Assembly: GCF_044647545.1 (NCBI RefSeq)
Contig: NZ_CP172818.1
Length of the DNA: 64,000 bases
Reading direction: 5' to 3' (one strand)
Origin: Escherichia coli
GTDB lineage: Bacteria > Pseudomonadota > Gammaproteobacteria > Enterobacterales > Enterobacteriaceae
Numbering within the stretch: position 1 is the first letter of the stretch; each line of letters opens with the position of its first letter. Below are positions 3,630 to 61,400 of this stretch, piece after piece. The translations under genes and the position numbers were made by a program. Under the pieces are notes generated by a model that was given only the letters and a program-made list of their open reading frames with translations, searched no databases and was not told the DNA's origin.

Positions 3630-4317
3630 TCGGAGCGAATTTTTGAATAACGTTGCTCAGGCACTGGGTCGCCCGCAGCGACTTGAACCGCAAGCAGAAG
3701 ATGCGCCGCTAAACAACTATGCTAACGAGCGGCTTACCGAACTTAACCAACAGCAGCGCTGTGACGCGTTTATCCAGTTTGCCAGCGATGTTATGTTGAC
3801 GCGCTGTGAACTGACCAGCGAGGCGCAGGCCGCAGAAGCTGCAATACGTCTGTGTAAAGAGCTGGGAGATCAGTCGATCGTGATTAGCGGTGACACGAGG
3901 CTGGAGGAATTGGGGATTAGCGAACGTTTGCAGCAGGAATGCAATGTCGTTGTTTGGGATCCGGCGAAAGGTATTGAGAACATATCACAAGCAGAGCAGG
4001 CTAAAGTTGGCGTAGTGTATGCTGAATATGGTTTAACCGAATCGGGAGGCGTGGTTCTTTTTTCCGCCGCCGGGCGCGGGCGTTCATTGAGCCTGCTCCC
4101 GGAATCTTCTCTTTTTATCCTGCGTAAAAGCACTATCCTGCCGCGTGTAGCGCAACTCGCAGAAAAATTGCATCAGAAAGCGCAGGCCGGTGAACGAATG
4201 CCTTCCTGCATTAACATCATTAGCGGCCCCAGTTCAACGGCGGATATTGAGCTTATCAAAGTCGTCGGAGTTCATGGCCCGGTGAAAGCGGTGTATCTGA
4301 TTATTGAGGATTGTTGA
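3622..4317 (+). CDS. ykgG: LutC-like subunit, 231 aa from internal ATG overlapping ykgF stop by 8 bp
   Basis: ORF track 3475..4317; ATG at 3622 preceded by GGAG; operon context. Confidence 0.75.
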   Translation: MDNRSEFLNNVAQALGRPQRLEPQAEDAPLNNYANERLTELNQQQRCDAFIQFASDVMLTRCELTSEAQAAEAAIRLCKELGDQSIVISGDTRLEELGISERLQQECNVVVWDPAKGIENISQAEQAKVGVVYAEYGLTESGGVVLFSAAGRGRSLSLLPESSLFILRKSTILPRVAQLAEKLHQKAQAGERMPSCINIISGPSSTADIELIKVVGVHGPVKAVYLIIEDC

Positions 4318-4427: not shown

Positions 4428-4460
4428 AAATATCCTGGCATTACTAATGCCAGGATATTT
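4428..4460. other. Perfect 33-bp palindrome (15-bp arms, 3-bp loop) between convergent ykgG and ykgH
   Basis: AAATATCCTGGCATT-ACT-AATGCCAGGATATTT read directly; no U-rich tail on either strand. Confidence 0.6.
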
Positions 4461-4559
4461 AAAGTGAAAAAGACAGGCATCCATTCCTGAAAACGGGTTC
4501 CCTTCCCGGTCATTGTCACTTCAGCTTTATACAGGCACTCTCTATCAGAATGCTGTTTA

Positions 4560-42504: not shown

Positions 42505-45617
<3,113 letters not shown>

Positions 45618-45622
45618 TCACA

Positions 45623-45686
45623 CAACATACGAGCCGGACGCATAAAATGTAAAGCCTGGGGTGCCTAATGAGTGAGCTGACTCACA
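45623..45686 (-). promoter_or_regulatory. lac promoter: -10 TATGTT (45623-45629), -35 TTTACA (45648-45653) and CAP site (45668-45686)
   Basis: Reverse complement reads TGTGAGTCAGCTCACTCATTAGGCACCCCAGGCTTTACATTTTATGCGTCCGGCTCGTATGTTGTGTG. Confidence 0.85.
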
Positions 45687-45701
45687 TTAATTGCGTTGCG
45701 C

Positions 45702-46784
45702 TCACTGCCCGCTTTCCAGTCGGGAAATTTGTCGCGCCAGCTGCATTAAAGAATCTGCCAACGCCTGGGGAGAAGCGGTTTGCGTATTGGACGGAAGGGT
45801 GGTTTTTCTTTTCACCAGTGAGACGGGCAACAGCTGATTGCCCTTCACCGCCTGGCCCTGAGAGAGTTGCAGCAAGCGGTCCACGCTGGTTTGCCCCAGC
45901 AGGCGAAAATCCTGTTTGATGGTGGTTAACGGCGGGATATAACACGAGCTGTCTTCGGTATCGTCGTATCCCACTACCGAGATATCCGCACCAACGCGCA
46001 GCCCGGACTCGGTAATGGCGCGCATTGCGCCCAGCGCCATCTGATCGTTGGCAACCAGCATCGCAGTGGGGACGATGCCCTCATTCAGCATTTGCATGGT
46101 TTGTTGAAAACCGGACATGGCACTCCAGTCGCCTTCCCGTTCCGCTATCGGCTGAATTTGATTGCGTGTGAGATATTTATGCCAGCCCGCCAGACGCAGA
46201 CGCGCCGAGACAGAACTTAATGGACCTGCTAACAGCGCGATTTGCTGGTGACCCAATGCGACCAGATGCTCCACGCCCAGTCGCGTACCGTCTTCATGGG
46301 AGAAAATAATACTGTTGATGGGTGTCTGGTCAGAGACATCAAGAAATAAAGCCGGAACATTAGCGCAGGCAGCTTCCACAGCAATGGCATCCTGGTCATC
46401 CAGCGGATAGTTAATGATCAGCCCACTGACGCGTTGCGCGAGAAGATTGTGCACCGCCGCTTTACAGGCTTCGACGCCGCTTCGTTCTACCATCGACACC
46501 ACCACGCTGGCACCCAGTTGATCAGCGCGAGATTTAATCGCCGCGACAATTTGCGACGGCGCGTGCAGGGCCAGACTGGAAGTGGCAACGCCAATCAGCA
46601 ACGACTGTTTGCCCGCCAGTTGTTGTGCCACGCGGTTGGGAATGTAATTCAGCTCCGCCATCGCCGCTTCCACTTTTTCCCGCGTTTTCGCAGAAACGTG
46701 GCTGGCCTGGTTCACCACGCGGGAAACGGTCTGATAAGAGACACCGGCATATTCTGCGACATCGTATAGCGTTACTGGTTTCAC
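45702..46784 (-). CDS. lacI: Lactose repressor, GTG start
   Basis: ORF track 45702..46793; GTG at 46784 gives 360 aa beginning VKPVTLYDVAEYAGVSYQTVSRVVNQ. Confidence 0.95.
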   Translation of the reverse strand: MKPVTLYDVAEYAGVSYQTVSRVVNQASHVSAKTREKVEAAMAELNYIPNRVAQQLAGKQSLLIGVATSSLALHAPSQIVAAIKSRADQLGASVVVSMVERSGVEACKAAVHNLLAQRVSGLIINYPLDDQDAIAVEAACANVPALFLDVSDQTPINSIIFSHEDGTRLGVEHLVALGHQQIALLAGPLSSVSARLRLAGWHKYLTRNQIQPIAEREGDWSAMSGFQQTMQMLNEGIVPTAMLVANDQMALGAMRAITESGLRVGADISVVGYDDTEDSSCYIPPLTTIKQDFRLLGQTSVDRLLQLSQGQAVKGNQLLPVSLVKRKTTLPSNTQTASPQALADSLMQLARQISRLESGQ

Positions 46785-56342: not shown

Positions 56343-57176
56343 TCAACGCATATTCAGTTTATTGGCGTGGTACGCAATATGCTCGCCAATAAAACTGGAG
56401 ACAAAATAATAGCTGTGATCATAACCCTCGTGATAACGGATTAACGTCTTGATATTCATCTCCTGGCAGATCTTTTCAAGATTTGAAGTCCGCAGCTGTT
56501 CTGCGTAAAAATCATCACTCAACCCCTGATCAACCATTATTTCCGCAACGCGTTGACCTTGTGAAATAAGGCTCACCGGATCGTAATCCAACCAGGCTTC
56601 TTTATTTTCACCAAGATACGCGGCAAAGGCTTGCTGTCCCCACGGTACTTGCGATGGGGAGACAATGGGCGAAAACGCCGAGACGCTGGCATATTCATCT
56701 GGGTTACGTAACGCCAGCACCAGCGCGCCCAGCCCGCCCATAGAATGACCCGATATCGACTTTCTTGCCGTTGCTGGAAAATGTTTCAGCACTAAATCTG
56801 GTAGCTCGCTGCGGATGTAGTCATACATTTTGAAATGTTCATTCCACGGCGCTTGTGTTGCGTTCAGGTAGAACCCGGCACCTTGCCCGAGATCGTAACG
56901 GTCGGCATCTGCGACATGACTGCCTCGCGGACTGGTGTCTGGCGCAACAACAATAATGTTGTGCTCCGCCGCGTAACGTTGCATCCCCGATTTAGTAATG
57001 AAATTCTGCTCGTTGCAGGTCAGGCCCGAAAGCCAGTACAGCACCGGTAATTTTTCATTCCCGGCTTTTGGTGGGAGATAGACGCCGACATTCATTTCAC
57101 ATTTCAGTGATTGGGAATAATGCCGATACACATTTTGCCAGCCGCCAAAGCTGGCATGTTTTTCAATGAGTTCCAT
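56343..57176 (-). CDS. frmB: S-formylglutathione hydrolase (esterase D family)
   Basis: ORF track 56343..57176, 277 aa, GHSMGG motif. Confidence 0.9.
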   Translation of the reverse strand: MELIEKHASFGGWQNVYRHYSQSLKCEMNVGVYLPPKAGNEKLPVLYWLSGLTCNEQNFITKSGMQRYAAEHNIIVVAPDTSPRGSHVADADRYDLGQGAGFYLNATQAPWNEHFKMYDYIRSELPDLVLKHFPATARKSISGHSMGGLGALVLALRNPDEYASVSAFSPIVSPSQVPWGQQAFAAYLGENKEAWLDYDPVSLISQGQRVAEIMVDQGLSDDFYAEQLRTSNLEKICQEMNIKTLIRYHEGYDHSYYFVSSFIGEHIAYHANKLNMR

Positions 57177-57267: not shown

Positions 57268-58407
<1,140 letters not shown>

Positions 58408-58411
58408 TCAG

Positions 58412-58687
58412 CTATTTAAGATAGGCACGAACCAGTTCAATAGTGTCGTCAACGGATTGGCTGACTTCGCGGCTGTAGCAGTCATTTCGGTCAAACGTTT
58501 CCCGGATATGGCTTTCAAGCACTTCTGCCATCAGCCCGTTAGCCGCGCCCCGAACGGCAGCGATCTGTTGGAGTATGGCACGGCATTCGGCATCACCCTC
58601 CAGCGACCGTTCCAGAGCATCAATTTGCCCCCGAATACGACGAACTCGAGTAAGGACCTTTTTCTTCTCTTCCGGAGTACTGGGCAT
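58412..58687 (-). CDS. frmR: Formaldehyde-responsive repressor (CsoR/RcnR family)
   Basis: ORF track 58412..58708; ATG at 58687 gives 91 aa. Confidence 0.85.
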
Positions 58688-58713
58688 TTCGCACCTCATC
58701 ATCTGCACGCAAT

Positions 58714-58762
58714 ATACTATAGGGGGGTATGCTATATGTCAATGCATACCCCCCTATAGTAT
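58714..58762. promoter_or_regulatory. Inverted repeat ATACTATAGGGGGGTAT-N15-ATACCCCCCTATAGTAT just upstream of frmR; candidate FrmR operator
   Basis: 17-bp arms with G6/C6 tracts read directly; G/C tract flanked by AT-rich arms is typical of RcnR/FrmR-family operators. Confidence 0.55.
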
Positions 58763-58871
58763 ATAACACTGGAGAATAAAATTTATCCGGTGAATGTAGT
58801 CGGATAACAAAAAGGAAAGAGGGGCCTAATCGACAGGGAAGGCCGCCCCGGATAGCGGGCGGCAGAAGCAA

Positions 58872-59645
58872 TCAGAATTTCCAGGTCAGATGGGCTGCAA
58901 GTTGCAGACCGTTATAATCATCGGTTGGGGTGTCGTACCACACTTTACCTGCCGTCAGCCCGAGATTAAGTTGCTCAGTCAGCGGTTGAATACGTTGCAG
59001 ACTGACGCTCTTCATGCTGCCGTAGCGTGTTTCTGGCGTCCAGTCATAGGTGTAAGCGCCTGTTCCGCGGCTTAGCCATAGTTGCGTATAACCAGTGCCG
59101 CGCGGGTCATTCAGACGCACGGAAATCATATTGCTGTAACTACCACCTGCATCGCTGGAGTCATAATGGGTATAGCGGTAGCTGGAGATCACCGGGCCAG
59201 TATAGAGGGATACGCCGCCTTGCCAGGCATCGACTTCGACATCATCGTAATATTTAGTGTAGCGATAACCGGTCGTGAAAAGCGTTTTTGGCAACAGGGC
59301 CAGGTTAATATCCTGACGAAAATCCTGGCGGGCAAAGACCGGCGTATTATCCGCAAAGGCAATACCCGTTCGGGTTGTCAGCCAGTTATTCCATTTATAC
59401 CAGACCGCACCCTGACCGCGAGTGGCATTGAAATGTTCAGTTTCATAATCACGACGCCCCTGGGAAAGATTAAAAAGCAGCGTTGCGTTTTCAACTTTCG
59501 CCACCAGTTCAGCATACGCTAAATTACGATTGCCATGATCGCCAGAATAATCGGTAAAATCGTAGCCCGCGGTAATGGAAGTTAACCCGGCATAAGCGGG
59601 CAATGTGCTAAAAATGGCCGCCGCTAATAACGTCCGTTTTATCAT
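58872..59645 (-). CDS. yaiO: Outer membrane beta-barrel protein
   Basis: ORF track 58872..59645, 257 aa, signal peptide, terminal F. Confidence 0.85.
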   Translation of the reverse strand: MIKRTLLAAAIFSTLPAYAGLTSITAGYDFTDYSGDHGNRNLAYAELVAKVENATLLFNLSQGRRDYETEHFNATRGQGAVWYKWNNWLTTRTGIAFADNTPVFARQDFRQDINLALLPKTLFTTGYRYTKYYDDVEVDAWQGGVSLYTGPVISSYRYTHYDSSDAGGSYSNMISVRLNDPRGTGYTQLWLSRGTGAYTYDWTPETRYGSMKSVSLQRIQPLTEQLNLGLTAGKVWYDTPTDDYNGLQLAAHLTWKF

Positions 59646-59646
59646 T

Positions 59647-60200
59647 TTAATCTCCTGTACGGATAAGTTCTTGTCGGAGTGAATAAGTTCCGGTAGGTAA
59701 ATTACGTTCTACAATCACGCGCGGGCCAAGTTGCGTGTTCGGGGAAATAATTCGCCCAGGCAAAATAATAACTTGTACGCCAAGGCGTGAACGCTGTCCG
59801 ATATAACAACCTAATTTATCGCATCCGGTAGCGATAATTCCCTCTGGAGTTCGAACAGACACGGGCTGTTCATCCAGACGATGATTACTGGTACGTACTT
59901 GTGCGCCCAAATATGCCTGGTTTGCGACTACCGAGTCGGCAATAAAACATTGCGGACCAATCGTTGCTTCCGCTTCAATAACCGCATTTTTAATTTCGGT
60001 GGCGAAACCAATTTTTACGCCATTGCTGATTATTGTGCCAGGACGAATAAACGAAATTACCTATCAGGCAGTTTGCGCCAATCACTACCGGACCCTGAAT
60101 AACGGCACCGTGACAAATACGGGTATTCGCGCCGATAACAACTTCACCTGCAGTTTCATCAATAATTACCTGGTCTGCAATCTGAATATTTTTCTCTTTA
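59647..60200 (-). pseudogene. yaiX: Hexapeptide-repeat acetyltransferase gene with a single frameshift near 60050-60060; start approximate
   Basis: Track ORFs 59990..60355 and 59647..59910; re-reading one frame over from about 60055 restores a continuous hexapeptide protein down to 59647. Confidence 0.5.
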
Positions 60201-60203
60201 ACA

Positions 60204-61400
60204 TTAAGCTTCAGAAAGTTTTTCAGTTCCTGTGACAGAAGGTTGGGAATAAGCGGTTGACGCTTCCACCAGTGCGGAATAGCGGGTGGGTTTGTCGCGC
60301 TGAGGTTCGCGTCCAGTAAAAAAGGCAATAAGTCCATAAATAATCCAGATGGCATAAGCTAATAATACATACACAACGGAAAGCGGCGCTAAAGGCACCA
60401 ACAACCAGCAACGATGAAACCAGGCGCTAAAAGCACCAATAACACAAACTACGCCGACCCAGATAAGCGGAAACATTGCCAACACCACACCATGCGGCCC
60501 GGTGGTGATGAATTCATTAAACCAGGTAGTGAGATAAATCCCAACGCCATAAAGCACAACCAACAGCATAGGAAATATACTGAAGATACCGAAGCGGCTA
60601 AATAAAAGTCTTTTATGCAGGCGCATACAGACCGCGTAGCCCACAATCCAACGCCGCCAGCGACGCCATTCCTCACGCGGGCTGTTGCATTCCTGTGGGT
60701 ATACGATGCAGCGATTCGCCTGCCGAATACGATAGCCGTTTGCCACCAATGTCCAGGTGAGATCAAGGTCTTCGACTTTAGTACGATCAGAGAAACCGAA
60801 CTTACGCAATACATCAGTACGGAACATCCCGCAGGCACCGCTGATAATAAACGGTGCGCCGCCCAGGAGCTGCTGTAGCGTGCGCTTCATAACAATCATC
60901 GGCAACTTTACGGTCGCGCGGATGTGCGGTAACAGCCCCGCGCCTTTCAACGCAGTAGAGGGAATGCCGCCTACGGCATCAGCACCGCGCTCAATTTCTG
61001 CCAGCATATAGCCCATTCCGTCTTGATCGGGCGGAACATAGGTGTCGGCATCACTTAAAAAAACCTGGTCGCAGGTGGCGTAATTGAGGCCATTCATCAG
61101 CGCACCACCTTTACCGGTATTTTTTTGCGTGACGGCAACAAAGCGGTCGCCCCATTTGCGTTTGACTTCCGCCATGACCGCTTCGGTATTGTCCGTGGAG
61201 CCGTCGTTAACGCAAATTACCCGGCAAAAATAAGGGTTACGCAGCAGATTATCCAGTGACTGCGCCAGACACGGGCCTTCGTTATAAGCAGGTATAATGG
61301 CGTCAATACAGCCTTTTTTTTGGCTGGGCTTACGCCTTAACGTACTCAGGAACCATAGCAATATTGCTACGGCCATACAGATAAATATCCAGGTTTTCAT
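60204..61400 (-). CDS. yaiP: Family 2 glycosyltransferase with C-terminal membrane region
   Basis: ORF track 60204..61400, 398 aa. Confidence 0.85.
   Translation of the reverse strand: MKTWIFICMAVAILLWFLSTLRRKPSQKKGCIDAIIPAYNEGPCLAQSLDNLLRNPYFCRVICVNDGSTDNTEAVMAEVKRKWGDRFVAVTQKNTGKGGALMNGLNYATCDQVFLSDADTYVPPDQDGMGYMLAEIERGADAVGGIPSTALKGAGLLPHIRATVKLPMIVMKRTLQQLLGGAPFIISGACGMFRTDVLRKFGFSDRTKVEDLDLTWTLVANGYRIRQANRCIVYPQECNSPREEWRRWRRWIVGYAVCMRLHKRLLFSRFGIFSIFPMLLVVLYGVGIYLTTWFNEFITTGPHGVVLAMFPLIWVGVVCVIGAFSAWFHRCWLLVPLAPLSVVYVLLAYAIWIIYGLIAFFTGREPQRDKPTRYSALVEASTAYSQPSVTGTEKLSEA

Follow-up and report, generated by a model that had tools for sequence, protein, structure and literature searches.

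Two 17-bp FrmR units in the palindrome before frmR of an Escherichia coli strain: the very probable operator-promoter of frmRAB

Described operators of FrmR and related repressors

Work on synthetic methylotrophy makes routine use of the frmRAB promoter of E. coli, Pfrm, as a formaldehyde biosensor, and this promoter has reportedly been dissected by sort-seq (by Rohlhill, in 2017). Its inverted repeat was described by Denby et al. (2016, Sci Rep 6:38879, PMC5146963, Fig. 6a) as tandem type I sites of the CsoR/RcnR family, a type I operator of this family being an uninterrupted G/C tract of 3-8 bp with a flanking AT-rich inverted repeat (PMC5146963). FrmR binds a Pfrm fragment with a Kd of ~220 nM as compared to ~3,600 nM for a control promoter, and BLItz measurements on the K-12 promoter fragment revealed that formaldehyde leads to loss of this binding and to dissociation of the complex (PMC5146963). 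Transcription of frmRAB in vitro is inhibited by FrmR and the inhibition is reversed by formaldehyde, and in the crystal structure of FrmR the residues Lys10, Arg14, Arg16 and Arg17 are shifted apart by methylene bridges between Pro2 and Cys35 (PMC5146963).

The Salmonella Typhimurium operator, frmRAPro (Osman et al. 2015, PMC4528141; 2016, PMC5016687), has been studied on a 33-bp probe with a C6 tract in a T/A-rich inverted repeat, which binds two FrmR tetramers at ~1e-7 M (PMC4528141, PMC5016687). Mutation of one flanking arm of the probe abolished binding (PMC5016687, PMC4528141). The mutated probe, frmRAPro*, reads TTCTGGTTCAACACCCCCCTATAGTATATGGAG, and its unmutated 16 nt CCCCCCTATAGTATAT are identical to the proximal unit of the locus presented here. 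More recently, ATACN9GTAT sites were moved into the promoter J23100, where they conferred FrmR-dependent repression which was relieved by aldehyde, with 40-fold induction (2024 paper, PMC11127321). In the same study a Pfrm truncated a short way upstream of the sites, both of them still present, was no longer repressed (PMC11127321), and because of this truncated promoter the units alone may be insufficient for repression in the native context. RcnR operators, from the rcnR-rcnA intergenic region of E. coli and Salmonella (Iwig and Chivers 2009, cited in PMC5146963), consist of two type I units as does the operator here.

No base-resolution footprint, no ChIP-exo, ChIP-seq or gSELEX study of FrmR and no FrmR-DNA crystal structure was found in the papers and search results covered here (neither Denby 2016 nor Osman 2016 uses the word "footprint"), and nothing on the operator of frmRAB was found in a 2026 methenamine/formaldehyde-resistance paper or in an isoprenol evolution paper. 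We infer the exact-base assignment presented below from sequence logic, the Salmonella oligonucleotide with the mutated arm and the transplant of the sites into another promoter.

The frmRAB operator-promoter of the window

The window analysed here is a 64-kb stretch of DNA from an E. coli strain. It carries frmR (58412-58687, 91 aa; NCBIfam equivalog NF008464, 189 bits versus a cut-off of 133), frmA for S-(hydroxymethyl)glutathione dehydrogenase (57268-58377, 369 aa; TIGR02818, 743 bits versus 544) and frmB for S-formylglutathione hydrolase (56343-57176, 277 aa; TIGR02821, 397 bits versus 282), all on the minus strand, with yaiO (58872-59645, also minus) upstream of frmR. Since frmA and frmB are full length and all three products score above their equivalog cut-offs, the formaldehyde detoxification operon is intact, as an earlier note on this DNA had suggested. 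FrmR is 100% identical to that of K-12 (91/91 residues), with Pro2, Cys35 and His60 present, and the formaldehyde response of this strain appears intact and normally wired. Over a 701-bp stretch the locus is 100% identical to E. coli strain FDAARGOS_497, and RefSeq genomes carry the annotation frmA-frmR-yaiO for this stretch.

A repeat search placed a perfect inverted repeat at 58712-58764, upstream of frmR where the earlier note had seen one. Its 21-nt arms, ATATACTATAGGGGGGTATGC (58712-58732) and GCATACCCCCCTATAGTATAT (58744-58764), are 100% complementary and are separated by an 11-nt non-palindromic spacer, so that the + strand reads ATATACTATAGGGGGGTATGC-TATATGTCAAT-GCATACCCCCCTATAGTATAT. 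Among the perfect inverted repeats of the window with a spacer of up to 20 nt this is the longest, and its 21-nt arms exceed the maxima of 9-13 nt obtained when the window was simulated 30 times with a first-order Markov model. The 17-nt arms and 15-nt spacer given earlier (58714-58730 and 58746-58762) are a correct sub-description of this repeat but not the maximal one, perfect pairing going 2 nt beyond both ends of each arm. The 17+15+17 layout (58714-58762) nevertheless coincides exactly with two ATAC-N9-GTAT units, one with a G6 and one with a C6 tract. The description "immediately upstream of frmR" also proved accurate, with 24 nt between the proximal end of the repeat at 58712 and the frmR ATG at 58687 (minus strand).

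A motif scan of the window found exactly these two copies of ATAC-N9-GTAT and none elsewhere in the 64 kb. The promoter-distal FrmR site (58746-58762, minus strand) reads ATAC-TATAGGGGG-GTAT on the gene strand and the promoter-proximal site (58714-58730, minus strand) reads ATAC-CCCCCTATA-GTAT, both being exact matches. On the + strand, the G6 tract lies at 58722-58727 in the proximal unit and the C6 tract at 58749-58754 in the distal unit. The two units are mirror images with their centres 32 bp apart, which corresponds to ~3.05 turns of B-DNA. Both tracts are uninterrupted and within the 3-8 bp of a type I operator, both are flanked by AT-rich ATAC...GTAT arms with a further outer extension ATAT/ATAT, and the pair is located in the promoter of an operon which encodes a DUF156 repressor, the FrmR equivalog gene starting 24 nt downstream. 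The motif is moreover the exact ATAC-N9-GTAT used in PMC5146963 and PMC11127321, and it recurs upstream of frmR orthologues. Both units thus bear out the G/C-tract-in-AT-context architecture of the CsoR/RcnR family proposed in the earlier note, the same repeat being described in PMC5146963.

The gene strand reads ATAT-ATACTATAGGGGGGTAT-GCA-TTGACA-TATAGC-ATACCCCCCTATAGTAT-AT-TGCGTGCAGATGATGAGGTGCGAA-ATG, in which ATACTATAGGGGGGTAT is the distal and ATACCCCCCTATAGTAT the proximal unit. A consensus promoter scan identified one sigma-70-like promoter in it, with 10/12 consensus positions and 17-nt spacing. The predicted -35 hexamer TTGACA (58737-58742, minus) is situated inside the palindrome spacer, 3 nt after the distal unit. 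Six nucleotides separate the -35 from the proximal unit, which takes up the remainder of the interval between the hexamers and contains the predicted -10 hexamer TAGTAT (58714-58719, minus), whose last four bases are the GTAT arm of this unit. Transcription is predicted to start at 58707-58709 on the minus strand, at 58709 because PMC5146963 puts the palindrome centre (58738) at -29 of its predicted start, and at 58707 because 7 nt are counted after the -10 hexamer. Both starts are predictions; the units overlap the consensus hexamers, and their position fits the "-29" centre given in PMC5146963. A Shine-Dalgarno sequence, GAGGT (58693-58697, minus), assigned from the sequence, ends 5 nt before the frmR ATG (6 nt for the GAGG core).

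Upstream of the distal site and adjoining it is the block CCGGATAAATTTTATTCTCCAGTGTT (gene strand; 58765-58790, minus), which an alignment found to be largely kept across Escherichia, even beside a different neighbour gene. This block may be a contributor to promoter or repressor function, as an UP element or as DNA wrapped by the repressor, and removal of DNA upstream of the sites is what cost the truncated Pfrm its repression (PMC11127321). A part of it, TTTATTCT, recurs in the loci of the Edwardsiella plasmid, Enterobacter and Morganella described in the following section.

In comparison to the described systems, K-12 Pfrm is the same locus with the same gene order, FrmR protein, units, G6/C6 tracts, intervening TTGACA and spacing. 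Salmonella frmRAPro resembles the window in its C6 tract and T/A-rich inverted repeat but was reported as one C6 unit, on the 33-bp probe, and its operon lacks frmB (PMC5016687). RcnR responds to Ni/Co whereas FrmR responds to formaldehyde, and its units are 19 bp apart (PMC5146963) as compared to 32 bp for the FrmR units here. The core of the RcnR site, TACT-G6/7-N-AGTA, is of the form TACT-N7-AGTA, and the FrmR consensus ATAC-TCCCCTATA-GTAT holds the same frame as TACT-CCCCTAT-AGTA. Likewise, the wider FrmR consensus ATACTCCCCTATAGTAT contains TACT-N7-AGTA in the frame of the RcnR motif TACTGGGGGGNAGTA (motif quoted in PMC5146963). However, the G-run of RcnR fills the gap between the arms, whereas the run in the FrmR unit is off-centre and followed by TATA, and in E. 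coli FrmR, unlike RcnR, the run reaches into one arm (TACC / GGTA). Both units also fall within the definition of CsoR type I operators (Tan et al. 2014, summarised in PMC5146963), while many FrmR relatives outside Escherichia, with tracts such as GTGGAG and CTCCAC, are nearer to the CsoR type II description.

Conservation in Escherichia and among FrmR loci

The repeat had been called well preserved, and this is confirmed by 3,554 E. coli records with the identical 53-mer and 1,581 more that differ at no more than three positions (1,578 at 95-99% identity, with one or two differences, and 3 at 90-95%, with three). Of 5,426 complete E. coli genomes, 5,415 contain a 103-bp stretch of the promoter, at 95% identity or more in all but one, and the RefSeq annotation of this stretch contains no feature. 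K-12 has a gene-strand A for C at 58731, so that its arms pair perfectly over 19 nt instead of 21 nt, and a second difference at 58708, in the leader, neither of them being inside a 17-bp unit. The K-12 DNA used in the published binding assays consequently differs from the window at 58731, outside the units (PMC5146963 fragment). Among the other E. coli variants inspected, strain 112 has a change in the palindrome spacer, 06-00048 has CAGGGG for GGGGGG in the distal unit, the sole distal-unit change among the E. coli strains inspected, and G5 has C7 for C6 in the proximal unit, which could be a homopolymer sequencing error. The ATAC/GTAT arms are intact in all four variants.

The distal unit is unchanged in 8/8 Escherichia sequences aligned. 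In E. albertii, GGGGGGTATAT stands opposite ATACTCCCC, an arm change which is not compensated. With ATACTCCCC in the proximal unit and TATAT for TATGC in the distal arm extension, this species keeps both units and has a broken palindrome. Because both K-12 and E. albertii break the palindrome and yet keep the units, the comparison argues that the 17-bp unit ATAC-N9-GTAT, rather than the long palindrome, is the conserved functional unit.

The genomic neighbourhood upstream of the operator is variable. In about 1,136 of 5,416 E. coli genomes, the match to the frmA-frmR-promoter stretch ends at ~58790. The O157:H7 strain Z1815, for example, has fbpC instead of yaiO beside Pfrm, with the flank junction ~25 bp upstream of the operator.

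For a wider comparison, 80 loci encoding FrmR relatives with 52-100% identity were scanned, with one genome per species. An exact ATAC-N9-GTAT is present within 120 nt upstream of the start codon in 65 of the 80 frmR loci, against 3 motif matches in the other 244 kb of these loci (~0.0015 expected per 120 nt), an enrichment of ~500-fold. One unit is present in 47/80 loci and two units in 18/80, but these counts are inflated by related species, such as the many Brucella and Ochrobactrum loci, and are to be read qualitatively. The commoner form among the 80 loci is one unit between the -35 and the -10, typically right after TTGACA (e.g. TTGACATACTCCCCCATAGTATATAG in Brucella and Ochrobactrum), and the two-unit form is found mainly in Enterobacterales and a few other genera. 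Most two-unit loci have the mirror-image arrangement seen in the window, and their start-to-start spacing is 32 bp (n=7), 33 bp (n=1), 34 bp (n=8), 35 bp (n=1) or 23 bp (n=1), that is 32-35 bp in 17/18. The interior positions, which the search left unfixed, lean to T-C-C-C-C-T-A-T-A (55, 56, 54, 44, 46, 44, 46, 44 and 56 of 65, respectively).

An alignment of 13 genera showed conservation of only the two units, TTGAC, the -10 and the Shine-Dalgarno GAGGT; TTGAC, the -10 sequence TATAGTAT and GAGGT are each kept in most of the 13. The conservation of the proximal unit could come partly from its role as -10 and not from FrmR. Among the loci compared, only those of Escherichia have the uninterrupted G6/C6 run, and interrupted runs such as GTGGAG/CTCCAC are seen in Edwardsiella, Providencia, Pantoea, Aeromonas and Serratia.

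In two groups of loci the region upstream of frmR is shared between genera. It is identical or nearly so in a Citrobacter MAG, Klebsiella grimontii and Maribrevibacterium, which are unrelated genera, and a second such group consists of an Edwardsiella anguillarum plasmid, an Enterobacter sp. and Morganella. The occurrence of near-identical frmR upstream regions in unrelated genera points to mobile frmR-linked formaldehyde-resistance modules, each of which would bring along an operator of its own, with two units and interrupted G/C tracts.

Proposed regulation, alternative explanations and neighbouring features

We consider it very probable that the palindrome is the operator-promoter of frmRAB (Pfrm), with two FrmR units that bracket the -35 and cover the -10. 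Binding, repression and release by formaldehyde are published for identical or near-identical DNA and protein; what we infer is which bases FrmR contacts, how many tetramers occupy the double site of E. coli and where transcription starts. Without formaldehyde, tetrameric FrmR (CsoR/RcnR, DUF156 family) would occupy the units by reading the AT-rich sequence of their arms together with the shape of the G/C tract, and RNA polymerase would be kept off the promoter. Formaldehyde would cross-link Pro2 to Cys35 of neighbouring subunits and so move the basic DNA-contacting residues apart, whereupon FrmR would leave the DNA and frmR, frmA and frmB would be transcribed. As frmR is the first gene of the operon, such a circuit represses itself. 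The element is already known, being the FrmR double site over the frmRAB promoter published in 2016, and the finding is real but ordinary. Modest additions are the reading of a 17-bp unit over a palindrome, the G6/C6 tract peculiar to Escherichia and the one-unit form as the commoner one.

Within an operator reading, one FrmR tetramer, or two of them stacked, may join the two units through both faces and loop out the -35, which we regard as unlikely. Bridging was raised as possible in PMC5146963, where the centres are given as 31 bp apart versus 19 bp for RcnR, and it would suit the mirror-image layout and the narrow 32-35 bp spacing in 17/18 two-unit loci, a distance that is held across Enterobacterales and Aeromonas. 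Two tetramers bind to the single Salmonella unit on 33 bp, so that a plain ratio of one tetramer to one unit does not hold. On the other hand, spacings between 32 and 35 bp can deviate from each other by as much as one third of a turn of the helix, and this speaks against a need for exact phasing. Moreover, one unit is enough in 47/80 frmR loci, and the 15-bp loop between the units would need a very tight bend. From the spacing range and the one-unit majority, we lean towards units that act independently of each other. A further version, in which the mirror pair is a single clamp with one FrmR tetramer sandwiching the -35 between both of its faces and the block 58765-58790 adding wrapped DNA for native repression, seems to us quite improbable; if true, it would be a way of binding DNA that no CsoR/RcnR protein has been shown to use.

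The palindrome could otherwise act as an RNA hairpin, either as a terminator or processing signal for read-through from yaiO, which is upstream on the same strand as frmRAB, or as a structure in the frmRAB 5'-UTR. Minus-strand RNA of 58875-58695 does fold the palindrome as a 21-bp stem (MFE -69.6 kcal/mol, z = -6.4 versus shuffles), but such a fold is expected of any perfect DNA palindrome and the z-score therefore adds no information. The predicted frmRAB start is downstream of the stem, so the operon mRNA would not include the hairpin. Arm changes in relatives are uncompensated (E. albertii; K-12 breaks one pair) with the ATAC/GTAT arms fixed anyway, and in the 47/80 homologous loci with a single unit a long stem is impossible. 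Neither strand has a T-run after the stem, a terminator scan found no terminator-like site, and Rfam at a permissive E-value returned only sub-threshold matches to eukaryotic miRNA hairpin models. With the stem itself trivial, an RNA element or intrinsic terminator was rejected on these grounds, and we hold an RNA role to be very improbable. Least credible of all is a repeat with no regulatory role, arisen by chance or as a structural palindrome (recombination scar, cruciform). An alternative-flank junction (fbpC for yaiO) does lie ~25 bp from the repeat, at ~58790, in ~1,100 genomes, as might suit a scar. However, the arms are far longer than the simulated maxima, on which a chance origin was rejected, and they overlap near-consensus promoter hexamers; a palindrome with no role is further opposed by the ~500-fold recurrence of the motif before frmR in distant genera and by the published binding and repression.

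Two more hairpins are located between the yaiO stop codon and the operator, at 58783-58807 and 58842-58863. One of them, GCCGCCC/GGGCGGC, is found a few nt past the yaiO stop codon. The other, TTATCCG/CGGATAA, has an 11-nt loop and is followed by ATTTTATT on the minus strand, and strain M15 lacks it. Both are candidate yaiO terminators, neither being called by a simple terminator scan.

Elsewhere in the window, the second longest perfect inverted repeat is at 4428-4461, with 17-nt arms and a 1-nt spacer (AAATATCCTGGCATTA-C-TAATGCCAGGATATTT). An ORF on the + strand ends at 4317, ~110 nt before this repeat, which could be a terminator or a protein-binding site. The lac promoter-operator region (45590-45625, in the context of 45480-45720) contains a 13-nt perfect inverted repeat, TGTGTGAAATTGT / ACAATTTCACACA, and the lac O1 core reads AATTGTGAGCGAATAACAATT on the lacZ strand. 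We take the K-12 counterparts to be GCGGATAAC and GTGGAATTG, in which case the strain here would carry a variant, more symmetric operator, presumably along with changes in the CAP site and the -35 region relative to K-12. Just upstream of yaiO, two minus-strand ORFs (59647-59910, 87 aa, and 59990-60355, 121 aa) encode hexapeptide-repeat-like sequences, e.g. VIGANTRICHGAVIQGPVVIGANCLIG, and look like pieces of one disrupted gene.
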